Positions 8,558 to 57,367 of a DNA stretch of 64,000 bases are shown here, piece after piece; within the stretch, counting starts at the first letter, position 1, and each line of letters opens with the position of its first letter. Location of the stretch: assembly GCA_037189585.1 (NCBI GenBank), contig JBBCJA010000013.1:259067-323066 (forward strand), in the 5' to 3' direction. Source of the stretch: Selenomonadaceae bacterium. Lineage in GTDB: Bacteria > Vulcanimicrobiota > Xenobia > Xenobiales > JADMJV01. The notes beneath the pieces were generated by a model that was not told where the DNA came from, ran no database searches, and was given only the letters and a program-made list of their open reading frames with translations. Made by a program: the position numbers and the translations under genes.

Positions 8558-8611
8558 GGTGACTTTTTCTCCTAGAGATTGATTGAGCGGAGGATTTCAG
8601 GGCAAGGGTTG

Positions 8612-9394
8612 ATGGACCCTGCCGAAGAACCTCCGCTTCCCATGTTGCGCAACAAGATTCAGGGCCTCGAGGCGACCGATCCCGATTTCCCGCAGCTCAG
8701 TTTAGCCGAGAGGCGGAAGAAGTTGCGCGTCCGGACCTACATAAGGCTTGAGATCGCCACCGACAAGGGGCGGGTCTCCGCCATCGTCACCGACCTGTCT
8801 TTGGACGGCATGCGCATGCGCTGCCAACACCCGGTGCGGGATGGCGAACGGGTGGAGGTCTTCTTCCCCGATGGCCAGGATCCCGAGAGCACGGGCTCGG
8901 TACGCTGCCGTATCGTCTGGGTGCAGCAGATTCAGCAGGTCGGGCGGACCAGCTACGAAGCGGGACTGGCCTTCGAGGATAGCCGGGACAACATGAAGCG
9001 ATCCTGGGTGCGCTATGTTCTCGAGCAGCTCGGCTTCGACGAGAATAAGACGTTTCAAAAGCGAAAGTTTCTCCGCGTGAAAGGTCAGATCCCGGCTCGG
9101 ATCTTCACTGTTCGTCCCGACGACCCGGCTACCGGCGAGGTGGTCAATCTCGGCGTGGGGGGCGCGCTCCTGGCCCTCGACGCTCCGCTCGAGCGGGACA
9201 GCCAGATCCACTGCGAAATCTGCCTCTGGCGCATCCTGCCCGCGCTCCGGCTTCCCTGTCGCGTCATGGGCGTTCGGGAAGACCCGGATGTACCGGGACG
9301 CCACCTCCACTCGCTGCTCTTTCTGGGCATGGACACCGAGGAGGTGAAGCTCCTCGGTAACTACGTCATCTTCTTGATCAATCAGTCGGAATAG
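8612..9394 (+). CDS. Tandem PilZ-domain protein (putative c-di-GMP receptor)
   Basis: Domain 1 carries RKKLR ... DLSLDG (RxxxR / DxSxxG). Domain 2 carries RKFLR ... NLGVGG. ATG 8612 preferred over the upstream TTG 8579. Confidence 0.6.
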   Translation: MDPAEEPPLPMLRNKIQGLEATDPDFPQLSLAERRKKLRVRTYIRLEIATDKGRVSAIVTDLSLDGMRMRCQHPVRDGERVEVFFPDGQDPESTGSVRCRIVWVQQIQQVGRTSYEAGLAFEDSRDNMKRSWVRYVLEQLGFDENKTFQKRKFLRVKGQIPARIFTVRPDDPATGEVVNLGVGGALLALDAPLERDSQIHCEICLWRILPALRLPCRVMGVREDPDVPGRHLHSLLFLGMDTEEVKLLGNYVIFLINQSE

Positions 9395-13709: not shown

Positions 13710-15077
13710 ATGAGGTTTCACAGTTCGTTGAGTCACCCCGGTAAGCCCAAGTTGTCACTTTCTCGTCTCCGTCGCTCCGAGCAGACAGGAATCATCTCGC
13801 GCGGCTTTTCCGTTCGCTGGACAGCGGCCGTCTTGTTGATGGGAAGCGTGGGAGCGGCCTGGGCTTTCAATCCTCTTTCGGGAAGCGGAAAGGCTGTGGG
13901 GACCACCACGGTCGCCGACTCCCATCTTGTGGTGGAGGGAGACCCCCAGGTCGTGGCGCCTCTCCTTGGCTCGTTGGTGGGCGAAGTGGCCTTAAGTTCT
14001 CAAGACCGGGAATTGATATCTAAGTCAGCGGGTCAGCGCATGGTGTTGCGTTCTAAACCTGTGGTCGACCTCGGTGGGAAGAGTCTGCGCGACAAAGGGA
14101 AGTTCTTGCGTGCCGTGGAGGAGGTCGAGGAGCAGTTTCTGCTTTCGGGCGCTTATCCCCCCTTGCCTCCGGATGGAGCGGCGGGATCGATGAATTATCG
14201 CACAGACGGGCAAGACTTCACCCTGGGGTCTGGACATCGCCGCTATACGGCGGAGGAGGGTCTGACTTATGGATCCCCTCCGGTCGCCGGGCAGAGCTTC
14301 GAGGTGGCCGGTTTTTTGCGAAGTCAAGACATAGGCTGGGGGCCGTGGCGAAAGGCTTCGATGGAGTTCTTCGGGCAGAAAGAGGTCACGAATTCGGAGG
14401 CCTTGGAGTTTCTCGTCGAAAATGTTCCTGACTCAAAAAGTTCCGCTCGTCTTTTCTTCCCCGTGGATCGCGCTACATGCGGCTACCTGTTTCGTAAAAA
14501 GGATGGAACGAGTGCCTACAGGTCGGGGGAGTTGGCCTACGACGCCGCCTTGGGCACTTTTTCCCTGAAGCTTTTCCGTGTCAATCTCGCCTCTAGTCCG
14601 GCCCTTCGGGCTGACCGGTTAGAGGCCGAGGCTAAAGCTCGCGATGGCGCGGTGGTTCTGGTGGGCGACCAGGGGCTGCTCGGCGACCTCGGGTTGGCCG
14701 AGCCGCCGGCCGAGAGTCCAGACGGGGTAGTCGTTCTTTCCTCGGCCGCCGTGATGCCCTGCTCGGTCAGTAGCGCGCTCGACGGTCTGCGTTTGTCCGC
14801 TTTGGCCAGACATCAAGAAAGTCTGGCGCGGGGCCTGTATGTGGCTTCTGAGGGAGAGAAGTCTCAAGCGGTCGTGGCTGGACGGGTGAAGCTTCTCGAT
14901 CAACTGGGCCAGCTTCATCAACTGCACCTCCGCGCCGGACGTGGCGCCGACTATGATTGGGTGATCGGTCAGGTGTGCCCGGTGAAGGAGGAGCCGCGAG
15001 CGGAGAAGTTTGTAGACAGTGGGCTCAGTTTTGAGGAGAGCCCCACGACGGAGCCTCTGGTGAAGGCGGGACGGTAG
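13710..15077 (+). CDS. Secreted hypothetical protein
   Basis: N-terminal signal peptide (AAVLLMGSVGAAWA). 455 aa with no recognisable motif. Coding-like codon usage. Confidence 0.45.
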   Translation: MRFHSSLSHPGKPKLSLSRLRRSEQTGIISRGFSVRWTAAVLLMGSVGAAWAFNPLSGSGKAVGTTTVADSHLVVEGDPQVVAPLLGSLVGEVALSSQDRELISKSAGQRMVLRSKPVVDLGGKSLRDKGKFLRAVEEVEEQFLLSGAYPPLPPDGAAGSMNYRTDGQDFTLGSGHRRYTAEEGLTYGSPPVAGQSFEVAGFLRSQDIGWGPWRKASMEFFGQKEVTNSEALEFLVENVPDSKSSARLFFPVDRATCGYLFRKKDGTSAYRSGELAYDAALGTFSLKLFRVNLASSPALRADRLEAEAKARDGAVVLVGDQGLLGDLGLAEPPAESPDGVVVLSSAAVMPCSVSSALDGLRLSALARHQESLARGLYVASEGEKSQAVVAGRVKLLDQLGQLHQLHLRAGRGADYDWVIGQVCPVKEEPRAEKFVDSGLSFEESPTTEPLVKAGR

Positions 15078-39495: not shown

Positions 39496-41239
39496 CCGAA
39501 GAGTTCGGTGGGCGCTCGTCGCCGGTCTGCTGTTTTCGTGCTGCTCCTCCGGCTGCGAGTCTCCCGAACCGTTGGCACGAGAGACTCCGCGGCCCGCTCG
39601 ACCCGGCTCGAGGTTACCCCGGACGCAGCCCGAGCCCGCGGTTCCGATTGTCGTTGCGACGGCGACCGCCGACCCAACTCCGACCGTCGTAGGGAATGCG
39701 TCCGTCGTTGCCGCGCCGACTCGGACTTCCGAGCCGCCGGCTCAACCCGACCCGAGTAGTAGCCTACCTCTGACCCTTCCGGGTCCCACCAACGCGACCA
39801 GTTCTGATGACGGGGAACTCAAGACGCTTCTGGCCGAGGCCAGGAGTTCCAAAATGGCGGCACAATGGCGCAAGGCTGGGGAGCGCGCTCTCAAGTTGGA
39901 CCTTTACGGAGAAGCCGCCAAGGCGTTCCGGCAAGAAGCCAGCATCTACCGGTCCAAAGGGATTCTTCAGGCCGCGCTGGCCCAGGAGGCGCGGGCCGAT
40001 CAGTATTCCACCGAATTCGGATTTTACCTTAGCGGGCGCTCTAGCCTTTCCACCCAACGGACCGCCGAGCGTCTAGAGCCGCCCGCGGGATGTCTGGTGG
40101 GCGCGTTCATCGACCGCGACGACAAGGTGCGAAACTTCATGATGGTCTCGCAGACCCACGGCGATGTCGATGAATTCAACGAGTTGACGGGGAAAAAACA
40201 CGCCAGCTTTTTCATGTATCGCTCCTACGGCGAGCCTTTCCCCAAGCAGTGGGCCGAGTATCTGAAGGCCCGCGGCGCCATTGTCCACCTGGCCTGGGAG
40301 CCGCGCGATCTGGCCAGGGTCAAAGACGACGCCTATCTGAAGAGTTTTGTCGACGCGATGGTCGCCTTGGACCACCCTGTCATGTTGCGCTTCGCCAGTG
40401 AGATGAACGGTGAGTGGACTCCTTATCATGGCGACCCCAAGGCTTACAAAGCAGCCTTTCGCTTAGTCCACCGAGCCACGCGGCGGGCCTCTAAAGTTGC
40501 CATGATGTGGTGTCCCAACACCATCCCTCGCCAGGGACTCGAGGATTACTATCCGGGCGACGACGCGGTGGATTGGGTCGGAGTCAACTTTTACAGCGTT
40601 CCTTTTCTCGATAACGATCGCAACCGCCCGGGAGAACTGATCCATCCCACCGATCACTTGAAAACGGTCTACGGTCTCTACTCCTCTCGTAAGCCGATCG
40701 CCATTGGAGAATGGGCGGCCAGCCACCAGTCGAGCGCGACACCGATACCCCTGGTGGATTTCGCCAAGACCAAGATCTCCCAACTGTACGGCTCACTTCC
40801 CACCCGCTTCCCTCGAGTGAAGATGGTCAACTGGTATAGCTCGAACAATCTTCGTCACGCCAGCCCGTCGCGCCAACTCAACAACTACCAGGTGACCGAG
40901 CCGGAGGAACTGCTCGAGCACTACCGCCGGGCCGTTTCCTCCTCTTACTACCTCGGCGCGGAGGGGAACGGTGAAGGGACGGAGCAGGCCTTCCGACCCG
41001 TGTTCGGACGAGTTTCCGCGAGCACTTCCTCGGAATTGCGCATTGCACTGAAAACCTACGAGCAACGCCCCAAAGTCTATTTCCGGGTCAACGACGAGTT
41101 GAAGTTAGCATCGGACGAGCCTTTGGATTGGCGGCTGTCGGCACGAAATTGGAGAGACGGAAAAAATATCGTCGAGGTACTGGTTTACGATCAAAAGAAT
41201 CGGTTCATCACCAGCGAGAAGCTTATACTTGTCCGTTGA
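39464..41239 (+). CDS. Secreted (lipoprotein-like) protein with Pro/Thr-rich linker, helical region and C-terminal GH26-like (mannanase-family) glycoside-hydrolase domain
   Basis: Signal-like RRVRWALVAGLLFSCCSSGC. The C-terminal block WEPRD...MLRFASEMNGEW...YYPGDDAVDWVGVNFY...IAIGEWA resembles the GH26 catalytic Glu contexts. The start (TTG 39464) is uncertain; the upstream part of the long ORF from 39266 looks non-coding. Confidence 0.55.
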   Translation: MDVSSFSSRSSRRVRWALVAGLLFSCCSSGCESPEPLARETPRPARPGSRLPRTQPEPAVPIVVATATADPTPTVVGNASVVAAPTRTSEPPAQPDPSSSLPLTLPGPTNATSSDDGELKTLLAEARSSKMAAQWRKAGERALKLDLYGEAAKAFRQEASIYRSKGILQAALAQEARADQYSTEFGFYLSGRSSLSTQRTAERLEPPAGCLVGAFIDRDDKVRNFMMVSQTHGDVDEFNELTGKKHASFFMYRSYGEPFPKQWAEYLKARGAIVHLAWEPRDLARVKDDAYLKSFVDAMVALDHPVMLRFASEMNGEWTPYHGDPKAYKAAFRLVHRATRRASKVAMMWCPNTIPRQGLEDYYPGDDAVDWVGVNFYSVPFLDNDRNRPGELIHPTDHLKTVYGLYSSRKPIAIGEWAASHQSSATPIPLVDFAKTKISQLYGSLPTRFPRVKMVNWYSSNNLRHASPSRQLNNYQVTEPEELLEHYRRAVSSSYYLGAEGNGEGTEQAFRPVFGRVSASTSSELRIALKTYEQRPKVYFRVNDELKLASDEPLDWRLSARNWRDGKNIVEVLVYDQKNRFITSEKLILVR

Positions 41240-41282
41240 GAATCCCGAGGAGATCGCTCCTTGGAACCAAAAGAGCCTCCTT

Positions 41283-42440
41283 ATGCAGCCACACGATATC
41301 GACCAGACACAGGCCCATTCCACGGCCGAGCTCGAGCAGATCCGTCCGACGGACTTTTCCCTCGTCTGCCGAGCCAGCGGGGAGCGCCGGCGAGTGGTGG
41401 TGCCACGGACTCACCTTTTTATCTCTTCAAAGTCCTATCTGGTGGTTGACGAGCAAGAGGTTCAGCTGCATACCGAACACCCTGACATCGTGACGGTCAA
41501 CGGCGCGGCTTTCAGCGGAGAGCCTTTGCGACCGGGAGACGAGATCGCGGAGAATGGGAGAGCCTTTGTGTTGGAGAGTTCTCCCGTGGTGGCTTTCTTG
41601 GAAGGTCTGACCCCCCCTCACCAGGGGACCTTCTGGCCCTTAGGGGAGGAGAGCGTCACCGTGGGCCGTCCCGGCAAGCGAGACAATACCATCTCTCTTT
41701 TGGACAAGACGGTCAGTCGCGAACAAGCGACCCTGACATACCAGCAGGGACGATTCGTGCTGATACCCGAGGCCGCTAGCAGCACCAGTACGGTGAACGG
41801 CCGCCCGGTGGAGCAGAAGATGGTTCTGCGCAACGGAGACCTTCTGGCCTTCGGACAACAGATTGTGCGCTTCCAGAGCAATCACGATACCTTCGGTGCG
41901 GGTCAAGGGACGATTTTCTTTTGCGACGTGTGGGACTACTCCAATCTCTTCCACGGCCGGGCCGTGCACGAGGTCGCGCAGCTGATGAGGGAGTTTTACG
42001 AGGCCGCCGGGGAGGTGGTCGAAGGGAACGGAGGACTGGTCCTTCGTTACATCGGGGATGCCCTTTTGGCTGCTTTCTCCGAGGATGGACACGCGGACTC
42101 CGCGGTGGCGGCGGGCTTGGCGCTGCAGGCTCGGCTGGCCGAGCTCAACGCGGACTGGGCGACGCGCGGCATGCCGGTGTTGCAAGTGGGAGTCGGGATC
42201 AACTCGGGTGAATTCGCGGTCGGCCATATGGGCTTCGCTGGCTACATCGAGTTCGGAGCACTTGGGCCTGATGTGAATATGGCGGCTCGGATCGAGAAAC
42301 TGACCCGAGATCACGATTCGAAAGTTCTCTTGGGAGAGTCGACGGCGACTCTCTTGACCCGGGACTACCCCCTGCACTCGCTAGGCAGGCTAAACCTCAA
42401 GGGAGCTCAGGAAGAGATCGAAGTCTTCGCTGTGGTCTAG
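41283..42440 (+). CDS. FHA-domain (x2) class-III adenylate cyclase
   Basis: Canonical FHA VTVGRPGKRDNTISLLDKTVSREQATL...NGRPV. A divergent FHA-like segment lies upstream. The cyclase domain has metal Asp residues in FFCDVWDYS and YIGDALLAAF, and GPDVNMAARIE suggests adenylyl specificity. Confidence 0.8.
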   Translation: MQPHDIDQTQAHSTAELEQIRPTDFSLVCRASGERRRVVVPRTHLFISSKSYLVVDEQEVQLHTEHPDIVTVNGAAFSGEPLRPGDEIAENGRAFVLESSPVVAFLEGLTPPHQGTFWPLGEESVTVGRPGKRDNTISLLDKTVSREQATLTYQQGRFVLIPEAASSTSTVNGRPVEQKMVLRNGDLLAFGQQIVRFQSNHDTFGAGQGTIFFCDVWDYSNLFHGRAVHEVAQLMREFYEAAGEVVEGNGGLVLRYIGDALLAAFSEDGHADSAVAAGLALQARLAELNADWATRGMPVLQVGVGINSGEFAVGHMGFAGYIEFGALGPDVNMAARIEKLTRDHDSKVLLGESTATLLTRDYPLHSLGRLNLKGAQEEIEVFAVV

Positions 42441-44386
42441 GCTAGAGTCGCCCCTCCGAACAGCCGGAGCGCCTCGGTGGGGAGAATCTGCCCCTGGGCG
42501 ACCAGGACCTTGGCGAAGCTCTTGAACGAGAACAGTAGCCCGTGGGAGATGGCAGCCTTGCGGACGGCCTCGGGGCTACGTCCGGCGCGCATCATTTCGG
42601 CCAGGAACGGATTGAGTTTGAGCGACTCGAAAACCGCGACCTTGCCGGAAACCCCGCTTCCTCGACAACTGTCGCAGCCGGCTCCATGGAAGAAGCGGTC
42701 GTCGCGCGAGCCCAGGCCGGAGAGCTCCAGTTGAGAAACGACGGCGGGTGAAGGGCTATACGCCTGACGGCAGTGCGAACAGACTCGGCGCAGTAGCTGC
42801 TGGCCCAGAACCAGGCTGAGATTCTCCACGGTGGAGGCGGGTGCGTCCGGGCGACCCAGCAGCCCGGACAGTGCCGAGATGGGGTCGGTTCCACGCGTGG
42901 TGGTCAGCACGGTCAGTCCGTCCTCGGCGGCCTCTAAAACAGAGTTGAGACTCTCGCAGCCAGGTTCGTCGACCATCAAAACATCAGGTTTTTGCTCCAG
43001 AGCCACCCGCAAGGCCGAGGTGAGGTTCTGTCGCTCGCATTGACCCAGCAGGTCCCCTGGAAGTCGAACTTGGGCTATCTGATCCAGGGTTAGGAGAGGC
43101 TTTGTTTCTAAAGTCAAAGCGTTGACCCGTCCCGTCTCCTGGTCAAGGAGTCGAAGCAGACTATAGAGTGTCGTGCTACGTCCGGAGTGAGAGGAGCCGA
43201 CCACCAGCACGGCGCCCCCCTCGCCACGGATGGCAGCTTCGATCGTCTGTTTGAGAACGTCGACGGGCCACAGAGCGGAGGGCGAAGGGACAGCTTCTCG
43301 CGGGTCGGTGACGCCGACGGCATAACGCGCGCCGCGCAGGGTTTGCAAACGGGACAGGTGGACCTCGCATCGCTGCCCGTCGATCACGACCACTCGGGTC
43401 CGCACCTCGTTGGCCTCGGTGTCGGCCCCAAAGAGCGCCTTCAGCTGTTGCCCGAGCGCATTCTTTTGAGTCGAGTCAAGCTGGCAGTCGAGCGGTTCGA
43501 GTCGTCCTGACGAGCCGGCCGCGAAGAGGGCGACGCCATTGGGTGTCGGCTCCACGATCACCCTTCCCTGGTCACCAGCGTAGGCATGGGCCAGCAGAGT
43601 GTCAAAGGGAGCTCTCACCGGTTCCCCGCCTTCCAGAGTGATGCTCCTTGGAGGAGTGGCCGCGACGCTTGTCGAGGAAGGGGCTACGGTGGGAAGAAAC
43701 CGTTGAGCGAAGTCGGCGAAATCCTCCGCCGTACAGGCCATGGGGTTGATGCTCAGCCCCGGCGCCTGGCGACGCAGGGCGGCAAGTGTTGCCGTGTCGT
43801 GGGGGCGGGTCATGGCTACGGTGACCACGCCGGCTTCGAGACGCAGCGGAATGGCCTTGAGGGTTCGCAACAAGTTGGGAGTGAAAGTTTCGATGAGATC
43901 GGGCTGATTGATGATCTCTTCGGCGCGGGCGAAGTGAAATCCCATGCCGCCGAGCTGCTGGGCCAGACGAGTGGCCAAGTATCGGCTGATCTCGACAGCC
44001 ACCTGAGGCAGCTTCTCCAGGACCGAATCAAAAGAGGCCTTGGCCAGAACAAGGCAGGTTGTCGGCTCGAGGGCGCGCACCGTCGCCGCCCGGGGAGCCT
44101 CGGTCAGAAGTGACATCTCCCCGAAGGATTCCGGGCTGCGCCTCTCCGAGAGGACCTGTTCAACCCCCAGACTCGGCTCCTCTCGCACTACCACCACCGA
44201 GCCTTCGACTAAAATGAACAGTTCCGACCCTGGGTCGCCCTGGCGGACGATGACGGCGTCGGTCTCGAAAGCCATGGCTCGGGTGACTTTGGCTACCGCC
44301 TCGAGCAAGGGTGGAGAGAGTCTTGAGAAGAGGTCCGTCTGGGATAGGAGAGCAACGGCGGCTTGTTGGTCGAACATGGTGGGCAT
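42437..44386 (-). CDS. GspE/PilB-family secretion-ATPase homologue with N-terminal cyclic-nucleotide-binding domain and degenerate catalytic motifs (putative pseudo-ATPase)
   Basis: The cNMP domain (LFSRLSPP...FGEMSLL...RAATVRALEPTTCLVL) is followed by a T2SSE_N-like region and an ATPase core. Walker A is GSSHSGRSTTLYSLL versus the consensus GPTGSGKSTTLY (Lys to Arg). The Asp box is TLETKP versus TIEDP. The His box is GLTVLTTTRGT versus GHLVLSTLHTN, with both His lost. The tetracysteine CSHC...CDSC is retained. Start at M60 (44386, RBS GGGAAG) avoids overlap with the divergent TerB gene. Confidence 0.75.
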   Translation of the reverse strand: MPTMFDQQAAVALLSQTDLFSRLSPPLLEAVAKVTRAMAFETDAVIVRQGDPGSELFILVEGSVVVVREEPSLGVEQVLSERRSPESFGEMSLLTEAPRAATVRALEPTTCLVLAKASFDSVLEKLPQVAVEISRYLATRLAQQLGGMGFHFARAEEIINQPDLIETFTPNLLRTLKAIPLRLEAGVVTVAMTRPHDTATLAALRRQAPGLSINPMACTAEDFADFAQRFLPTVAPSSTSVAATPPRSITLEGGEPVRAPFDTLLAHAYAGDQGRVIVEPTPNGVALFAAGSSGRLEPLDCQLDSTQKNALGQQLKALFGADTEANEVRTRVVVIDGQRCEVHLSRLQTLRGARYAVGVTDPREAVPSPSALWPVDVLKQTIEAAIRGEGGAVLVVGSSHSGRSTTLYSLLRLLDQETGRVNALTLETKPLLTLDQIAQVRLPGDLLGQCERQNLTSALRVALEQKPDVLMVDEPGCESLNSVLEAAEDGLTVLTTTRGTDPISALSGLLGRPDAPASTVENLSLVLGQQLLRRVCSHCRQAYSPSPAVVSQLELSGLGSRDDRFFHGAGCDSCRGSGVSGKVAVFESLKLNPFLAEMMRAGRSPEAVRKAAISHGLLFSFKSFAKVLVAQGQILPTEALRLFGGATLA

Positions 44387-45025: not shown

Positions 45026-46363
45026 TTGAAGCCCGGGGTGGGGAGCCAGAGGTGTCTGCTCGGGTTGGGCTTGGCCGGCTGGTTGTTTTCTGCGGGCTCT
45101 TCCCTGGCCCAAGAGCAGGCTCCAGTGGTGCGAGCGGAGTTTGTCGTCGATCCTGGAAATACCGAAGTTTGGCGCTCCTCCGGGGAGGGAGTGAGCAACT
45201 ATGTCGGCCCGGCCAACAAGATGCTGTCTTTAGACCTCGACGCGGCGGAAATGGCCGGAAATCGCGATATCGTGGTGGAGTTCAAAGTGCCTCTCTGGTT
45301 CTCCACCTGGACCAGTCCCGCCGAGTATGTCTCTCCCGGCCGCTTACGCGAAACCCGTCGATTCCCGGAGCGTGATGTCCATCGCCTGGAGCTCGGCGGC
45401 TGGCGGCGTTTCCAAGCCTGGACACTGGCCCATCCGAGCCTGGCGCTAGGCGCCCCGGCGGGGCTCTTCGTCACCCTGGTGGCGGGCTGGCTATGGAGAC
45501 GTCGACCTCGACCGAAGCCCCATGGAGAATTGACCGATGGATATTCATTGAGAGAAAGGCTCGGCGCGGGAGCGATGGGTGAGGTTTTCGCCGCGACCGA
45601 TTCCGATGGGATGGAGTGCGCGTTGAAGTTTCTCCGCTCCGAGCTGACCGCGAATCCGAGGGCGGCCGAGAGGTTCAACCGAGAGATCGCCGCCAGCGTC
45701 TCTTTAAGCCATCCCAACTTGCTGAAGGTGTTCGGCTACGGATTCGCCCGTGACGGACGGCTCTACCTATCCACCGAGCTTTTGAAGGGCCGAACTCTTA
45801 AGGAGGAGCTCAAGAAAAATGATCGCTCGCCGGAGCTGGCTCTCGACGTGGTCGAGGAGGTCGGAGCGGCTCTAGCTTATCTGCAGGGACGCGGAGTGGT
45901 CCATCGCGACGTCAAGCCCGAGAATATCTTTGTTCGGGAGAGCGGCGGACTGGTGTTGATGGACCTTGGAATCGCGCAGACCGCGAACACGGAGTCGATC
46001 ACCGTCGCGGGTCAGGCCATGGGCTCTCCGCTTTACATGGCACCCGAGCAGGTTCAGGGGAAACCCGGTCCGGCTACCGACCAGTACGCTTTGGGTCTTG
46101 TTCTGTACGAGATTTTGACCGGACGACGTCCCTTCCGGGCCACCGACGTGGCCGCCCTGGTCCATCAGCATATCCATGAAACTCCGCCCCCGCCGCGCCA
46201 AATCGAACCGCGTATTCCCGAGGTCGTGGAGAGGGCTCTACTGCGCATGTTGACCAAGCGCCCAGAGGAGCGCTTCGCCTCCGTGGAGGAGGCGCGCCGG
46301 GCGGTGTCCGAGGGACTGGCGGGCCAGCGCTGGCGAAGATCTAGAGAGACTCGGACATTTTGA
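45026..46363 (+). CDS. Receptor-type Ser/Thr protein kinase (signal peptide, ectodomain, TM, Hanks kinase)
   Basis: GAMGEVFAA...ALK (subdomains I and II), HRDVKPENIF, DLGIA and APE motifs. A single TM segment (LFVTLVAGWLW) precedes the kinase. Confidence 0.85.
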   Translation: MKPGVGSQRCLLGLGLAGWLFSAGSSLAQEQAPVVRAEFVVDPGNTEVWRSSGEGVSNYVGPANKMLSLDLDAAEMAGNRDIVVEFKVPLWFSTWTSPAEYVSPGRLRETRRFPERDVHRLELGGWRRFQAWTLAHPSLALGAPAGLFVTLVAGWLWRRRPRPKPHGELTDGYSLRERLGAGAMGEVFAATDSDGMECALKFLRSELTANPRAAERFNREIAASVSLSHPNLLKVFGYGFARDGRLYLSTELLKGRTLKEELKKNDRSPELALDVVEEVGAALAYLQGRGVVHRDVKPENIFVRESGGLVLMDLGIAQTANTESITVAGQAMGSPLYMAPEQVQGKPGPATDQYALGLVLYEILTGRRPFRATDVAALVHQHIHETPPPPRQIEPRIPEVVERALLRMLTKRPEERFASVEEARRAVSEGLAGQRWRRSRETRTF

Positions 46364-48044
46364 GGATCGGCAGCAGGCACCCGATGGAGAAAAAGCCGAC
46401 GCAGATTCCCAGGAAGGCCATGAAAAGGGGCTCGACCAGACTCATCAGCGCTTCTATGCGATATTCGAGTTCGGCGTCGACGATACGCGCCACACTCTCC
46501 ATCATCCCCGTCACGTCGCCGCTCTGTTGACCCGCCTCGACAGCTTCGATCACCAGCGGCGGCAGTATGTCTCCAACTTCTAGCGACTCGCGCAGGGTAC
46601 TGCCGTCGATCAGGGCCTGTTTCATTCTGGGTCCGGCCAGTGTGGCCTTGCGTGAGCCTGTGGCCTCGGCGGCCATGAGAAAACACTGGGGAGCGGTCAG
46701 CCCGACATCATAGGTCATGATGAAGATTCTTAGGAAACGAAGCGAGACCGCGGTCTGGATCAGGTTTCCGACACCCGGTAGCGCCCAGGCCATCGGCTCC
46801 AGATTCACCAACCTTTCACGGACTTTTCCGCTACGGAGCCCCAGGAATCCGAGGACCGTCAGAGACGCCGCAGTGATGAGGAAGGCCGGAGAAGAGAGGG
46901 AACGCGAGAACCAGAGAATCCCCTTGGTGATAGCCGGGGGGTCGCCACTGAGCTCCACAACCTGGGTCAAGACGTCGGCCAAAACGAAAGGCGGGAGTAG
47001 AACCACCGCCAGAAGTGTGAGCGAGGCGATGGTGAGCGGATAGAAGAGATGACTCTGCAAGGTTTGGCGCAGCTTCCATCGATGCTCCTCGTCAGCCGCC
47101 AAACGGTGAAGAACGGCCACCAGCTTACCCGAACGCATGCCGATCTCGACCAGCTTGACCGCGATCTCGCTAAAAAGAGCGGGCTCTTTGTAGGCTGCCC
47201 GGTGAAGCGGCTGACCCGCTAATAGGTCTTGAGAAATACGTCGACAGGCTTCAGCTTGTTCGGGACTTTCCGACTCTCGAGCGAGAAAGTCGAAGACTCC
47301 GAACATAGGCAGGCCAGCCCCCAGCATGGTGGTGAGGGAGCGGTAGAAGGTCACTCGTTGGCGCTGGAGGTTGCCGGACCAGGATTGGATCAAAGATCGC
47401 CGAGGCACCGAGGTGGCGACGGATTCGACCGCCACGGGAGATTTTTTGACCGGCGGGGGCGATGGAGGAGTGGGGGGAGGTTTTAAGGGAGGTTTTGAGG
47501 CGTCGAGCTCCGGAGCCGTGACGGAGGGTGAGGGTGCCTCTAGCTTGGCTACCCAGGCGGGAACCGGTGGATCGTCGAGACTTTCCGGCTTAGCCCAGGC
47601 GGGTCGTTCGGGAGCTGAGGGCGCTGGAGGTGTCTTCTCGATGGGTTTCGGGCCTGGCGGCTTGGCCAATTTGAGCTCCACCGGAGGGAGGGCCGGGGGT
47701 TGTTTCGCAGCTTTCTCGACGGCTTCAGCGTGGGAAAGCATCTCAGGAAGCCCGACTTCTCCGGTGGGCGATTCCTCTTTCTTGGGGCGACTTCGTTGCC
47801 AGGCCCGCATCATTTCATCGCTACTGACTTCAAATGTCTCCGAGGTCTCACGGGCGACCCAGCCACCGCTGGAGGTAAAGTGGTCCGACCCGGCTGGACG
47901 GCTCAGGGGCTGCGAGTCCGATGTGATCAATCCGGAAAGCCAACCTGTATAAGTCGACTCCGTGTCCATCTCTGGACCTGGAGTGGCCAAGACGTCATCG
48001 CCCCACTGCACCGGCTTGGGTTCAGCAGACTTATCTTCGGCCAT
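46341..48044 (-). CDS. GspF/PilC-like inner-membrane platform protein (two T2SSF repeats) with an approximately 320-aa proline-rich N-terminal extension
   Basis: Two T2SSF-domain repeats (RVTFYRSLTTMLGAGLP...; ...GPRMKQALIDGSTLRESL...) with 3 TM segments. N-terminal low-complexity PPxP-rich region. Start placed at MAEDKS (48044); the first about 97 codons of the long ORF look non-coding. Confidence 0.7.
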   Translation of the reverse strand: MAEDKSAEPKPVQWGDDVLATPGPEMDTESTYTGWLSGLITSDSQPLSRPAGSDHFTSSGGWVARETSETFEVSSDEMMRAWQRSRPKKEESPTGEVGLPEMLSHAEAVEKAAKQPPALPPVELKLAKPPGPKPIEKTPPAPSAPERPAWAKPESLDDPPVPAWVAKLEAPSPSVTAPELDASKPPLKPPPTPPSPPPVKKSPVAVESVATSVPRRSLIQSWSGNLQRQRVTFYRSLTTMLGAGLPMFGVFDFLARESESPEQAEACRRISQDLLAGQPLHRAAYKEPALFSEIAVKLVEIGMRSGKLVAVLHRLAADEEHRWKLRQTLQSHLFYPLTIASLTLLAVVLLPPFVLADVLTQVVELSGDPPAITKGILWFSRSLSSPAFLITAASLTVLGFLGLRSGKVRERLVNLEPMAWALPGVGNLIQTAVSLRFLRIFIMTYDVGLTAPQCFLMAAEATGSRKATLAGPRMKQALIDGSTLRESLEVGDILPPLVIEAVEAGQQSGDVTGMMESVARIVDAELEYRIEALMSLVEPLFMAFLGICVGFFSIGCLLPILKMSESL

Positions 48045-48297
48045 TTCCCACTCGAGTCGACATAAAATTGGAGCTATCTTAGCAGCTTTGCTCGGCCTGC
48101 GAAATTGGCCTTGGAGCTTGAGAAAGTCTCGTTCCACGCCGAAGCGAGGAGATCGGAAAATAATCGGAAAAACTTCGATTACATTGTTCACTGACCTCCT
48201 GTGTCGAAAGGTCGCCGCGGACTGTTTTAGACAGTGTATGGACGACCAGGTGCGAGGAAATTTGATCAAAAATTTAACGTTAACCCGAGGTCGTCCG

Positions 48298-49818
48298 TTA
48301 GTTGGGAATGATGACGCCGCAGGTCGCGTCGTCAAGATCCCCTATGTCGGCTAGCGCGGTTTCGATGGCTTGAGCCGCTTCGGTGATTGAGGGGAATCGT
48401 GTTTCCGGCCTTTTGGCCATCAGACGTTGAACCACCACTTCTAGCAGTGGACTGGCATCGGGCACCTCGTGAAAGATAGACGGGACGGGGGCGGTCAGGT
48501 GTTGGGTTATGACCTCGATGGGGTCGCCCTCGGGATAGGGGCGGTCCCCGGTCAGCATCTCGAAAAGGATCACTCCCACGGCGTATTGATCGCTTTCGGG
48601 ACGAACCTCTCCCTTGGCCTGTTCCGGCGCCATGTAGTGAGGGCTTCCCACAGCCATTCCGGTTCGAGTGATGGCTTCGAACTCTAGACCTCGAGCGATC
48701 CCGAGATCGACGAGTTTGACTCCAGTGCGGTCCAAAAAGATGTTCGATGGCTTGACGTCGCGATGAACCATACCCTTTTTATGGATGTAAGCTAGAGCTT
48801 TGCACAAGGGAAGCAAAATGTTCGCGATCTTCTCTCTGGGCGGTTGAATATCGTCGTCGAGCTCCTCCGAGAGGGTACGACCTTCCAACAACTCCATCAC
48901 CAGGTAGGTCTCGCCGTCGGGACCCACGCCGGTATCATACATCCTGACGAGGTTAGGATGGTTTAGCTTGGAGCAGATCTCGATCTCTCGAAGGAATCGT
49001 TTCTTGGTGTCACGGTCTTCCAGCAGTTCGGGACGCACGACTTTGATGGCCACCTCTCGACCAGGCGCCTTGGGCGAGGTGCCGCGGTAGATGATCGCCA
49101 TTCCCCCCTCGGCGATCTTCTCTTTTATGACGTAAGGCGGCCCGGTCGGCGGGATGGGGTCTGCTCGGCCGGAAGTCGTTTGGGGCAACCGGGTCGAGGG
49201 CGGCGTCTGCTGCTGGCGACCTCGTCGCCCGAGGATAAATCCACCGGCGCCCACCCCCAGAACCAGAAGGGCGAGCCCCGGAGCAAGCCACGATCCGGAT
49301 CCGACAGGCTCAAGCCTGTAGGTCCCCTGGCTAGGAAGGCGCCGACTGCCTCGGAGTTCAGGCGCGGTGAGTGAGATAACTTTAGGCACGTAGCCGTCGG
49401 CGCTAAGGGTGAATTCAAAAGACTTGTCTCCCGAAGCGGGAAGCTCGAGAGCTAGCGGTTGAGCGGCGCTCTGCTCCACCACTCCGTCGACCTTGACGAT
49501 CGCGTTGGGAGGATCGACATGGACTTTCACTATGACCTGCTCGGCATCGCCGGGCAGTCTCATCAGAGCAAAGACAATAGCGGTAAGCATCCATGGCGCG
49601 CGCACGCGGCCTACTTTGCTTTTTTCGACCTGGCTCCTGGAATCAAACGGATACAGTGGTGGAAACGACCGACTCCTACCCCAGCAGAGAATCCAGGGCA
49701 TTCCGAAAGTCGTTTGAGTAGAGGGGTCCCACCGCGTTCCCTCTTTCGGCCCGCCGCGAAGCGCTTTGGAAGGTCGAGGTGCGGTCCGGGGAGGAGGAGG
49801 AGGTGTTGCCAAGTCCAC
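48298..49818 (-). CDS. Receptor-type Ser/Thr protein kinase with PEGA-like ectodomain
   Basis: Kinase motifs GGMAIIYRG...AIK, HRDVKPSNIF, DLGIARG and SPHYMAPE. An ectodomain VIVKVHVDPPNAIVKVDGV...GYVPKV (PEGA-like) is followed by one TM segment. A second ORF in another frame (49676..50083) overlaps the 5' end, so a frameshift or alternative N-terminus is possible. Confidence 0.8.
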   Translation of the reverse strand: MDLATPPPPPRTAPRPSKALRGGPKEGTRWDPSTQTTFGMPWILCWGRSRSFPPLYPFDSRSQVEKSKVGRVRAPWMLTAIVFALMRLPGDAEQVIVKVHVDPPNAIVKVDGVVEQSAAQPLALELPASGDKSFEFTLSADGYVPKVISLTAPELRGSRRLPSQGTYRLEPVGSGSWLAPGLALLVLGVGAGGFILGRRGRQQQTPPSTRLPQTTSGRADPIPPTGPPYVIKEKIAEGGMAIIYRGTSPKAPGREVAIKVVRPELLEDRDTKKRFLREIEICSKLNHPNLVRMYDTGVGPDGETYLVMELLEGRTLSEELDDDIQPPREKIANILLPLCKALAYIHKKGMVHRDVKPSNIFLDRTGVKLVDLGIARGLEFEAITRTGMAVGSPHYMAPEQAKGEVRPESDQYAVGVILFEMLTGDRPYPEGDPIEVITQHLTAPVPSIFHEVPDASPLLEVVVQRLMAKRPETRFPSITEAAQAIETALADIGDLDDATCGVIIPN

Positions 49819-52094: not shown

Positions 52095-53471
52095 CTATAG
52101 ACCCATTGAAGCGCGATAGTAGAGCTTCATCAACTCCGGGTCGGGATCGAGGTCGTCGGACTTGAGCGCTTTGACGGTCGCTTCGTAGACTTCCACCGCG
52201 CGTTCCGGCTTGGCCATTTTCAGGTAGGCCTCCATTAAAAGGCCGGCCGCATCCTCGTTGGTGGGGTCCACTTCCAGCAGTTTTCGTCCGGAACTCTCCA
52301 CTGCTTCGAATTCGTTGTGTTCCAGCATCGTCCGACCCGAAGCCAGCACCGTTTCGGTGAAACAGATCTCGAGTTTGGACCGGGCCACGTCGGCCCAGTC
52401 TTCATAACAGGTTCGCAGAAACGGACCACGATAGAGATCGAGCAGCCTTCGTAGGGCCGCGGCCGAGGTGAGAGGTTTGCGAGGTTCGGTCATTTTCATG
52501 ACCTCGGTGTAGTCATGTTGGCCGAGGCGTTCGGGATTGAGTTGCAGGGTCGAGGGTGTCCGCAGTACCAGGGATTCGAAGGCCGCGTCGTCGAGAGCCA
52601 GGGAATCGCGCAGCTGGAGCAGAGTGTAGCTGAGATTTTTTCGGCCACGGGTTGCCGCGACCCCGGGCCAGAACTCCTCCAACAAGGACTCCACGGCCAG
52701 AGGTTCGCCCCACTGCAAAGCCAGTCGAGCCAGCAGCCAGCGACTCTTCTCGTTACGAACGTCTTGCCCCAGATTAGCGTCGCCACCTAAGGAGACCCAA
52801 AAGGTGCCCAAGGTCCTAATAGAGATGAGCGACTCGGTGCTAGAGGCTTCAGCGGGGACGGAGAAACGGAAGAAAAGTTGGCCGACTCCGATCAGATCGC
52901 CATGGTGAAGCCGCTTGGTGGCTCCGGGCGCCAGCGCCTCCCCGTTGACCGTGGTGGCACTACCGGCCGACTCGCTCATCAACGAAACCTGGCCGTGACG
53001 ATCGGGCAGAAAGGTCGCATGGGCTCGAGATATGGTCGGATGCTCGAGCTCGATATGGTTGAGTCGCTTGCCCCGACGACCCAACAGAGTCTGTTGACCC
53101 TTAAGGTGCCAAACCCGACCGGTGAAAGGAGCGTCAACCCCCTCCAGCGTTCCCACCGGAGGCTGACGTACGTCCAGCAGCCAGATGTTCGCTCCGTCGA
53201 GAATCGCGCTCTCTCCCACGTGCAGCGGACGGCTTTCGCCGTTCTCGCTGTTGAAAAGGACCACGCTGTCGCCTTTGAGTCTGGCAGACCATGTCGAGCC
53301 CGCGGGAAAAGCCGTGGCCGCTTCCTTGGCGAAGCTGATCTCCTCGGAGATGAAAGGGAAACGGTACTCCCGCTGACCGTCGAGAACCAGCTGCAGTTCG
53401 AGATGTGGATGGGCCAGAGTGACCGACTGGGCCAACACGTTCTGAGTGGGATCGCTAGACTGTTCCGTCAT
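52095..53471 (-). CDS. FHA-domain plus SARP/BTAD (OmpR-like wHTH with bacterial transcriptional activation domain) regulator, a reverse EmbR architecture
   Basis: N-terminal FHA (TLLGRRGKRLNHIELEHPTISRAHATF...NGEAL). C-terminal winged helix (LGTFWVSLGGDANLG...RWLLARLAL) and BTAD helices (LDLYRGPFL...EAYLKMAKPERAVEVYE). Confidence 0.7.
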   Translation of the reverse strand: MTEQSSDPTQNVLAQSVTLAHPHLELQLVLDGQREYRFPFISEEISFAKEAATAFPAGSTWSARLKGDSVVLFNSENGESRPLHVGESAILDGANIWLLDVRQPPVGTLEGVDAPFTGRVWHLKGQQTLLGRRGKRLNHIELEHPTISRAHATFLPDRHGQVSLMSESAGSATTVNGEALAPGATKRLHHGDLIGVGQLFFRFSVPAEASSTESLISIRTLGTFWVSLGGDANLGQDVRNEKSRWLLARLALQWGEPLAVESLLEEFWPGVAATRGRKNLSYTLLQLRDSLALDDAAFESLVLRTPSTLQLNPERLGQHDYTEVMKMTEPRKPLTSAAALRRLLDLYRGPFLRTCYEDWADVARSKLEICFTETVLASGRTMLEHNEFEAVESSGRKLLEVDPTNEDAAGLLMEAYLKMAKPERAVEVYEATVKALKSDDLDPDPELMKLYYRASMGL

Positions 53472-55673: not shown

Positions 55674-55771
55674 ACTTGTTCGAAGCCCGCACGGCGAAGC
55701 CTCCAGGGAAAGGTGAAGGCCTACGGTACTTTATGCCTAGACGATTGACCCTACTTGGGGATAATAGAGCT

Positions 55772-57367
55772 ATGAGCCATGAAATCCGTACGAACCAGAA
55801 TCAGCCACATCGGCCTATCATTTCACCGTCGATCGAGAAGGTTGCATCCAACTTGGCTGGTGTGGCTGATAGCATTCTCGGAAATCCGGCGGGAGAGGCG
55901 CCCTTGGGCTCGGTTGTCTCGCCCGCGACTCAACGGATGGTGTCCCGCTTGACCGGCGGTTTGATGAACCCCAACCAGAATCTCGGAGTTACCCAGGGAG
56001 TTCCACGCGATGAACGGACCGGATTACCCGAAATTCACCAGGCCCTTCCCAGTGGTATGCTCGCCGAAGGGGTGAAGGCCGGAGTTAAGAAGGCACGTGC
56101 CGACAGGCGTGAGGTGTTGGAGAAGTTCAGCTCAAATCCTGAGCTGTTGGGCCTGGCAAAGACCATGAGAACCAACGACCTTCCCGCTTTGTTGAGCCTC
56201 CAGCAGAAGGGGATCCTGGCCAAGAAAGACATCAAGGGCCAGACCGTGACCGAATCGCTACTGGGCCTGGCTCAGGGGCCTTTGATCAAAGATACGGACG
56301 GAAAAGAGATCGACCGCAAGGCTCTTTTGGGTCAGCTCGTCACCGACCTCGACGATCCCAAAGTGATCTGGCAAGGTCGAGGAAATACCTGCGGAGCAAC
56401 CAGTTCCAGCATCTACCTGGCCCAAACCCGCCCCGCCGAGTACGCTCGCATCACTGCGGAGTTGGCCAAGCCACCCGGAGAAGCTCTTCTTCCGGACGGC
56501 AAAAACAAGATCAGGGCGCTTCAGAGCCAGATTAACAATGACCGCTCTCGCTCTTTGACGGGACAACTCTTGCAGCCGGCTTTCATGGAGTTCGCCAATG
56601 GAGACAAGTACGACTATAAGGTCGACAAGGACTCAGAGGCGCACAAACATAATGCCAACGCCCTTCTTCACAAATCTAGCTTGCCAGCTATCGGTACGGG
56701 ACCGATCTATGCCAAATTTGATGCATCTGAGAAGACTCGCCATTTAGCGGCGACTTTGGGACATCAGATTCCAGGGTTGACCCAGCCGGAAATGGCCAGG
56801 CTGACGACCGCGTTGTTTGGACAAGAGCATGAGGTTCTCGGATCCGACTTGAGTATAGGCGACGTTAGAAGGTCTCTGACCCAGCGAGCCAAGCCAAAGA
56901 ACAAGGCGGCACTAGAAGCTTTGGACCAAAGGCGTTTACCGGCTTTCGTCCTTATGGACGCCGACCATGGAATGAAAACGGAGAAAACCATGGTGGGGGC
57001 ACTCCTCAAGCGTACTTTCCCCGGAATGCTCGATAAATCTGCTTTGGAGGGGCTTCTGGGCAAAGAAGCCCAGGATGCGATTAAGGCTAAGCGGAAAATC
57101 GTCATGCCCGCCGACGGATTTCACTGGGTTCTGGTCCGGGAGATCAAAGACGGTAGAGTCTACTTTGACGATCCGAATCGGCCCAGTAAGGCGCAACTCG
57201 ACCCCAACGACAAAGCTCGCCGAGATTCCGACGATCCGGCTTACAAGTATCGCTATCGCCCGGATGGGTTCCAGGTGGACGAGCAGTCAGGCTTGTCCAG
57301 TATGCCGATCGACAATTTTAAGGAAACCGTCTGGTCGGTGGTGGTTCCGAAACAGCAGCCTAACTAA
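55772..57367 (+). CDS. Hypothetical protein with papain-like (clan CA) cysteine-peptidase signature (Gln...Cys / His...Asp)
   Basis: IWQGRGNTCGATSSSIYLA places a Gln 6 residues before the Cys, as in the papain oxyanion hole. The C-terminal DGFHWVLVREIKDGRVYFDDPN supplies His and Asp/Asn. No signal peptide. The start is uncertain (ATG 55733 or 55772). Confidence 0.45.
   Translation: MSHEIRTNQNQPHRPIISPSIEKVASNLAGVADSILGNPAGEAPLGSVVSPATQRMVSRLTGGLMNPNQNLGVTQGVPRDERTGLPEIHQALPSGMLAEGVKAGVKKARADRREVLEKFSSNPELLGLAKTMRTNDLPALLSLQQKGILAKKDIKGQTVTESLLGLAQGPLIKDTDGKEIDRKALLGQLVTDLDDPKVIWQGRGNTCGATSSSIYLAQTRPAEYARITAELAKPPGEALLPDGKNKIRALQSQINNDRSRSLTGQLLQPAFMEFANGDKYDYKVDKDSEAHKHNANALLHKSSLPAIGTGPIYAKFDASEKTRHLAATLGHQIPGLTQPEMARLTTALFGQEHEVLGSDLSIGDVRRSLTQRAKPKNKAALEALDQRRLPAFVLMDADHGMKTEKTMVGALLKRTFPGMLDKSALEGLLGKEAQDAIKAKRKIVMPADGFHWVLVREIKDGRVYFDDPNRPSKAQLDPNDKARRDSDDPAYKYRYRPDGFQVDEQSGLSSMPIDNFKETVWSVVVPKQQPN

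Follow-up and report, generated by a model that had tools for sequence, protein, structure and literature searches.

The window analysed here is a stretch of 64,000 nucleotides (contig JBBCJA010000013.1, positions 259,067 to 323,066) from an uncultured bacterium placed in the Vulcanimicrobiota (Eremiobacterota). It encodes a membrane protein related to PilC and GspF, the platform proteins of type IV pili and type II secretion. The coding sequence occupies 46341..48044 on the minus strand (567 residues, ATG at 48044, stop codon at 46341-46343) and lies between two genes for receptor-type Ser/Thr kinases. We describe a long N-terminal arm that precedes the conserved platform core of this protein. 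The arm is predicted to be disordered, is translated and under purifying selection, and carries a conserved short linear motif close to its N-terminus. Residue numbers refer to the 567-residue protein unless the long open reading frame (ORF) is named.

The platform core and the extent of the gene

Two stretches in the C-terminal part of the protein match the Pfam family T2SSF (E-value 4.7e-39; score 133.7 bits, cut-off 25.2); one of them, the more N-terminal, spans residues 330-447 of the long ORF. All features of the core lie on the minus strand. The first T2SSF domain, which is cytoplasmic and is defined by the best Pfam stretch and by Foldseek, covers residues 233-350 (46995..47348), and transmembrane helix 1 covers residues 337-355 (46980..47036; hydropathy 2.35 over 19 residues and a continuous helix in the AlphaFold2 model). 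Then come helix 2 (residues 383-403, 46836..46898, hydropathy 1.75), the second T2SSF repeat with the approximate boundaries 426-555 (46380..46769; the second Pfam stretch, aligning with residues 275-413 of M. xanthus PilC) and helix 3 (residues 540-558, 46371..46427, hydropathy 2.44). Hydropathy peaks and the helices of the model give the layout domain 1, helix 1, helix 2, domain 2, helix 3, for which we infer the in/out topology. BLASTP did not detect the internal T2SSF repeat, which Pfam resolves into two stretches. The initial annotation of this DNA had placed two T2SSF repeats and three transmembrane helices in the C-terminal 340 or so residues, and both Pfam and hydropathy agree with it.

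The AlphaFold2 model, built on an alignment of 34 sequences, has a predicted local distance difference test (pLDDT) score of 81-98 over residues 221-567. Its first cytoplasmic domain superimposes on the crystal structures of OutF, EpsF and PilC with TM(target) scores of 0.81-0.90 and a root-mean-square deviation of 1.2-1.4 Å over about 100 residues (Foldseek), and phmmer aligns residues 224-564 to M. xanthus PilC with an E-value of 1.9e-28. All NCBIfam equivalog cut-offs were missed: the protein scores 174 against 424 for GspF (TIGR02120), 127 against 700 for PilC (NF052606/7) and, in the order listed, 85 against 240 for ComGB (NF041012) and 133 against 401 for HofC. Members of its own clade reach at least 276 bits, whereas canonical PilC and GspF proteins reach at most 110 bits at 20-27% identity. 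In precomputed Pfam assignments PF28597 is recorded for no clade member, while it accompanies T2SSF in most canonical members of the same list. Judged by these scores, the platform protein is a divergent member of the T2SSF (PF00482) superfamily and an orthologue of no named platform protein.

A longer ORF, 46341..48335 on the minus strand, is present in the window and had been reported as the gene, but the gene itself has to be corrected to 46341..48044. The public protein collection holds a 567-residue gene call (P0001) that is 100% identical and begins with MAEDK at ATG 48044. In the 84%-identical relatives L003 and L004 the upstream DNA aligns well, yet it contains an in-frame TGA and an in-frame TAA. 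On this comparison the long ORF begins with 97 non-coding codons, because both relatives have stop codons there; the initial annotation had already suspected as much, and the start of P0001 agrees. A GTG at 48191 behind an AGGAGG sequence was considered as a start and is ruled out by the in-frame stops of L003.

The N-terminal arm

The extension ahead of the core comprises residues 1-225 (47370..48044, minus strand) and stands out by pLDDT, by the ratio of nonsynonymous to synonymous substitution rates (dN/dS) and by composition. Its length is about 225-232 residues; the first T2SSF domain begins at residue 233, compared with about residue 70 in the canonical protein P0028. The N-terminus is hence unusually long in comparison with standard GspF and PilC proteins, as first proposed, although it falls well short of the roughly 320 residues originally given. 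The extension is made up of 18% Pro and 18% Ser plus Thr. Across residues 1-220 the pLDDT is only 35-60, as opposed to 81-98 in the core, and the model contains just two short helices there (residues 75-84 and 99-113), which fits the earlier idea of a disordered tether. The charge-hydropathy balance places the extension on the disordered side by a hair (mean H 0.423 versus 0.424) and is on its own not decisive. In known platforms the first T2SSF domain is cytoplasmic. Hydropathy reveals no hydrophobic segment between the arm and this domain in the window protein, and since no transmembrane helix separates the two, the arm should likewise be cytoplasmic if the canonical topology applies.

Short forms of the protein raise the question whether the Pro-rich region is an untranslated leader, with the true start near the first T2SSF repeat as in the forms of about 350 residues. 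Within the clade the extension ranges from 0 to 295 residues, with short forms of 351-360 residues, and the long ORF offers in-frame GTG, TTG and ATG codons at positions 301-337 at which such a start could lie. Against this, dN/dS relative to L003 is 0.16 in the extension (0.07 in the core), and the two indels that distinguish the extensions, of 54 and 27 nucleotides (nt), are both in frame. Moreover, more than 20 relatives (37-89% identity), each assembled independently, have an open frame of 83-295 codons ahead of the core, and among them a protein-level motif is conserved whose codons vary synonymously. The short form in L012 has no DNA that could encode an extension, only a gap of 102 nt. 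We regard such an annotation artefact as extremely improbable: from the dN/dS value, the in-frame indels, the open frame in relatives and the synonymous changes within the motif, we conclude that the extension is translated and under purifying selection. Orthologues without the extension, which the initial annotation had named together with an untranslated upstream region as arguing against a long N-terminus, do exist (P0022), but the region is translated where it is present.

The conserved element of the arm is a short linear motif, W-L-S-G-L-I at residues 35-40 (47925..47942, minus strand), recognized by its conservation in relatives. The initial annotation had overlooked it and looked to the Pro-rich part instead. 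The family consensus reads [GRD][NHG]-W-L-x-G-L-[VI]-K-[PE]-E-P and is located 15-112 residues from the N-terminus. We counted 34 instances in 20 of the 23 extension-bearing relatives, with one to three copies each, in which W, L, G and L are near-invariant amid otherwise unalignable sequence. Leu is encoded by CTT, TTG, CTC, CTG or TTA and Gly by GGA, GGC or GGG. When the strict pattern W-L-x-[GD]-L-[IV] was searched in all six-frame ORFs of more than 100 residues from the window and 12 fetched loci, it matched N-termini of the PilC-like proteins only. The matches came from the window and from 8 of these 12 loci; the remaining four include truncated or distant loci.

An arm of this kind could also be a passive spacer or a largely neutral, lineage-specific tail, either an entropic bristle or the remnant of a lost canonical N-terminal domain. 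The wide range of lengths within the clade, the fast sequence turnover and the fact that some members do without an arm would fit such a spacer. However, the conservation of W, L, G and L in 34 instances and the purifying selection would be unexpected for a neutral tail, and we consider this explanation quite unlikely. The presence of a conserved motif on the arm suggests that the platform protein is a point at which this pilus-type machine is regulated.

The segment between motif and core is a variable Pro-rich linker (residues 115-204, 47433..47702, minus strand; delimited by a composition test), which includes PPTPPSPPPVKK, the string quoted in the initial annotation, and two RPAW/VPAW elements. 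Pro accounts for 31 of its 90 residues (34%), whereas its share in 30 further window genes is 5.3% (binomial tail about 2e-17), and the description of this part as Pro-rich and of low complexity is well founded. The Pro-rich stretch is at the same time the least conserved part of the protein; it differs in length and sequence even from the 84%-identical relative, where the 54- and 27-nt indels are found. A second arm element, RPAWA[KR]PE, is common to the closest relatives only. On the opposite strand, 47371..47952 (plus) forms a Gly-rich ORF of 193 residues antisense to the Pro-rich region, which is almost certainly no gene and a mirror artefact of CCN codons.

The PxxP, PPxP and KPP repeats had originally been read as ligands of SH3- or WW-type domains, and many PxxP strings do occur in residues 115-204. 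However, a Pro content of 34% alone predicts PxxP strings by composition. The Pro-rich segment is the most variable one, and across the orthologues neither PxxP nor PPxY is found at a constant position. Pfam revealed no SH3 or WW domain in the 35 window ORFs that were scanned, among them the platform gene. An SH3/WW-type docking region is therefore very improbable.

Neighbouring genes

The kinase A gene (48298..49818, minus strand; Pfam Pkinase E 9.6e-46, start codon uncertain) lies directly upstream of the platform gene and is adjacent to it also in L003-L008, L010 and L012. The kinase B gene (45026..46363, plus strand; Pfam Pkinase E 1.5e-41) lies downstream, convergent with the platform gene, and has an orthologue in L003-7, L010, L012 and L013. 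Both kinases share one architecture, consisting of a signal or anchor sequence, a beta-rich outer domain of about 100 residues, a transmembrane helix and the kinase domain, and relatives of 41% identity have an orthologue of each in the corresponding place. A third conserved gene (52095..53471, minus strand) encodes a SARP-like regulator with Pfam FHA and BTAD domains. It is 52-54% identical across the clade and more conserved than the platform protein, and the profile of its orthologues matches EmbR (E 2e-4) and AfsR (E 2e-3). By eye, the segment between its two domains resembles a SARP winged helix; a single-sequence AlphaFold model was uninformative (pLDDT 43). The cassette of kinase A, platform, kinase B and FHA-BTAD protein recurs in relatives down to 41% identity.

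In the window lineage the cassette is accompanied by a TerB-like gene, an ATPase gene and a cyclase gene. The ATPase gene (42437..44386, minus strand), 2 kb from the platform gene, encodes a PilB/GspE-like protein with the T2SSE ATPase domain, an N-terminal cyclic nucleotide-binding domain and an MshEN domain, assigned by Pfam and by alignment to Thermus PilF. Its Walker A sequence is GSSHSGRS, with Arg in place of Lys, and the same substitution is found in L003; the His of the His-box is replaced by Arg. This protein may hydrolyse ATP slowly or be a pseudo-ATPase that senses cAMP. The cyclase gene (41229..42440, plus strand) is convergent with the ATPase gene and overlaps it by 4 nt. Its product combines an FHA domain with an adenylate/guanylate cyclase domain (Pfam FHA and Guanylate_cyc), and it is kept in L003 and, judged from the ORF layout only, in L001. 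Both FHA proteins, regulator and cyclase, are encoded within 6 kb of the platform gene. The arrangement suggests a relay from the kinase to the FHA-cyclase, to cAMP and on to the ATPase. We saw no phosphatase or TagF-type partner.

Most lineages carry instead, after the platform gene, a gene for a protein of about 560 residues that has no known domain and whose hydrophobic N-terminus is PilX-like, together with two pilin-like genes (L010 9379..12149, L012 11080..13738, L006 11341..13621 and L007 11693..14196). One pilin-like gene contains an RRGLTIPE sequence and gives a weak N_methyl match, and in L010 and L012 the pilin-like genes adjoin the platform gene. The window lineage and L001 and L003-5 have no pilin-like genes at the platform locus. 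A search of the window for a homologue of the PilX-like protein was negative, and the protein is related neither to the ATPase nor to a 563-residue ORF at 55676..57367 (plus strand). This ORF belongs to no Pfam family, as does a 455-residue ORF at 13710..15077 (plus strand); a 537-residue counterpart of the former is found at the same place in L003. Among housekeeping genes, 8579..9394 (plus strand) encodes a protein with two PilZ-domain stretches, the type of a cyclic di-GMP (c-di-GMP) receptor.

These neighbours also bear on a role of the arm without kinase signalling, in which the motif would be a self-assembly tether that binds a core component of the machine and raises its local concentration at the platform. 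This component could be the PilB-like ATPase, for instance its MshEN or N-terminal domains, or the large PilX-like protein. The docking of short N-terminal peptides on machine components is a known principle, an example being the PilN peptide on PilM. One to three motif copies would suit the multivalent capture of an oligomeric ATPase, and in the window lineage the ATPase gene is only 2 kb away. However, no T2SSE Pfam match was called in the fetched flanks (8-10 kb per side) of L006, L007, L012 and L013, nor was a T2SSE gene seen in the listed part of L010, and the arm-less forms have the same neighbours. We consider a mere tether unlikely, while granting it a real chance.

The region upstream of the platform gene

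Between kinase A and the platform gene lies a conserved non-coding leader or promoter region of 170 nt (48045..48214, minus strand). It aligns with L003 from end to end, including an identical block of 62 nt, despite the stop codons in L003. A TGn-TAAGAT element is located about 35 nt ahead of the ATG. The leader also contains the direct repeat TTCCGA-N5-TTCCGA with a period of 11 nt (48153..48169, minus strand). The pattern TTCCGW-N5-TTCCGW occurs once in the window and once each in L003-5, L012 (inverted) and L013, with an expectation by chance of 0.11 per 64 kb. The repeat lies at 9771-9787 in L003, at 9917-9933 in L012 and at 9836-9852 in L013. It is thus present in three or four independent lineages, and in each case 65-165 nt separate it from the platform gene downstream. 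A scan of the leader for sigma-70 promoters gave no convincing candidate, an RNA structure was not significant (z -1.18) and there was no Rfam match.

The repeat looks like a candidate operator for a regulator of the OmpR/SARP type, and it is a reasonable guess that the SARP-type regulator of the cassette binds it. If so, kinase signalling would also be tied to the transcription of the platform gene. In L003 about 640 extra nt separate the kinase gene from the leader (L003 9014..9726 compared with window 48215..48285). The opposite strand of this extra DNA, which represents either an insertion in L003 or a deletion in the window, contains an ORF of 209 residues without a known domain.

Distribution of the clade

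Relatives from named genomes are metagenome-assembled genomes of Candidatus Xenobia and Vulcanimicrobiota (Eremiobacterota). Scans of genomes and metagenomes added only five extra loci, and the clade is therefore rare in the collections scanned. An exhaustive HMMER search returned 143 cluster representatives at E <= 1e-30. Most of them have about 345 residues and start directly with the core, and roughly a third have at least 440 residues. In distant long forms the extra N-terminal part is a GAF domain (P0054, P0057 and P0145) or an FHA domain (P0091), and a short Pro-rich linker joins it to the core; P0078, of the same subfamily, has a 400-residue N-terminal region of no known kind. Since the GAF and FHA fusions and the arm occur at the same position, the N-terminus of this platform subfamily appears to be a recurrent site for the addition of regulatory modules. 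In the literature searched we found no description of GAF-T2SSF, FHA-T2SSF or disordered-arm platforms. A different PilC-like gene of the Vulcanimicrobiota in L002 (6781..11858) encodes a canonical small N-terminal domain and a disordered linker of about 50 residues. From translations alone, its neighbours are an apparent GAF-adenylate cyclase and an apparent 820-residue kinase with a long C-terminal region, once more a setting of signalling genes.

Discussion

In our judgement there is a little better than an even chance that the extension is a cytoplasmic docking arm with a regulatory role, attached to the platform of a divergent machine of the type IV filament class, similar to a pilus or a type II secretion system (T2SS). 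The disordered arm of about 225 residues would stand in for the canonical small N-terminal domain. Its N-proximal W-L-x-G-L-[IV](-K) motif would most likely dock a protein partner, and the variable linker, rich in Pro and Ser/Thr, would serve as an extended spacer and likely as a phosphorylation substrate. The many Ser and Thr residues of the arm would be accessible to both membrane kinases. The arm would thus be the entry point of signalling into the machine. The flanking kinases and the FHA proteins of the cassette might control partner binding or the activity of the platform post-translationally, with the kinases presumably acting on the arm, in a manner that would resemble the control of TssL by kinase and FHA protein in type VI secretion.

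Several observations weigh against a regulatory docking arm. No partner of the motif was identified, and three extension-bearing relatives (P0040, P0042 and P0045) have no motif. The arm contains no positionally conserved Thr or Ser. Neither pilin-like genes nor prepilin motifs were found in the 64-kb window, and the exchange of Lys for Arg in the Walker A sequence of the nearby ATPase makes it uncertain whether the machine is active at all. Finally, P0022 (360 residues, L012) belongs to a complete cassette, in which its start lies only 102 nt from the kinase gene, and has no arm. Because such an arm-less cassette exists, the core machine can do without the arm, and the kinases cannot act through the arm alone. 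Seen across these loci, the arm is an added layer that the core does not require.

A more specific version of the docking arm, in which the motif on the Pro-rich arm is a previously undescribed docking element and receptor kinases together with FHA proteins switch a filament machine via its platform, is a tentative proposal that we regard as possible rather than probable. If it is true, the GAF- and FHA-fused platforms of sister lineages would have solved the same task in other ways, and the superfamily would have a regulated hub in the platform and not in the ATPase alone. Type IV pili and type II secretion systems are known to be regulated mainly at the ATPase, with inputs of the c-di-GMP, PilZ and FimX type, or at the level of transcription. 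A platform subfamily with N-terminal sensor or adaptor modules amid receptor kinases would point to a second, unexplored control point. The finding also provides a concrete, testable handle for a phylum that is nearly without experimental biology, consisting of a six-residue motif, two kinases, and an FHA/SARP regulator with its candidate operator.

The core resembles the known platform proteins PilC, GspF and other T2SSF proteins (M. xanthus PilC, V. cholerae EpsF and T. thermophilus PilC) in its two repeats, its three transmembrane helices and the fold of its cytoplasmic domain, and in relatives the platform gene stands beside pilin-like genes. It differs from canonical PilC and GspF in the 225-residue disordered arm with its conserved motif, in an identity of only 20-27% and in scores below the equivalog cut-offs. 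The arm itself recalls the periplasmic spacer of TonB, which is Pro-rich and rigid and built of (Glu-Pro)n/(Lys-Pro)n repeats. Both are rich in KP, EP and PP, of low complexity, variable in length and likely extended. However, the TonB spacer is periplasmic, while the arm precedes the cytoplasmic first T2SSF domain and should be cytoplasmic.

In the type VI secretion system of A. tumefaciens the kinase PpkA acts on TssL, a membrane protein, by phosphorylating its cytoplasmic N-terminus, to which Fha binds (PMC3953482). The cassette is like this threonine-phosphorylation pathway in that the gene for a membrane component of a trans-envelope machine has genes for FHA proteins and for a receptor-type Ser/Thr kinase beside it. 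In contrast, the machine here is of the type IV filament kind, and phosphorylation of the arm is something we entirely infer. The GAF-T2SSF and FHA-T2SSF fusions have the same core (about 30% identity, E 1e-31 to 1e-46) and an extra module at the same N-terminal position. While these fusions carry a folded sensor or phosphopeptide-binding module, the window protein carries a disordered arm with a short linear motif.

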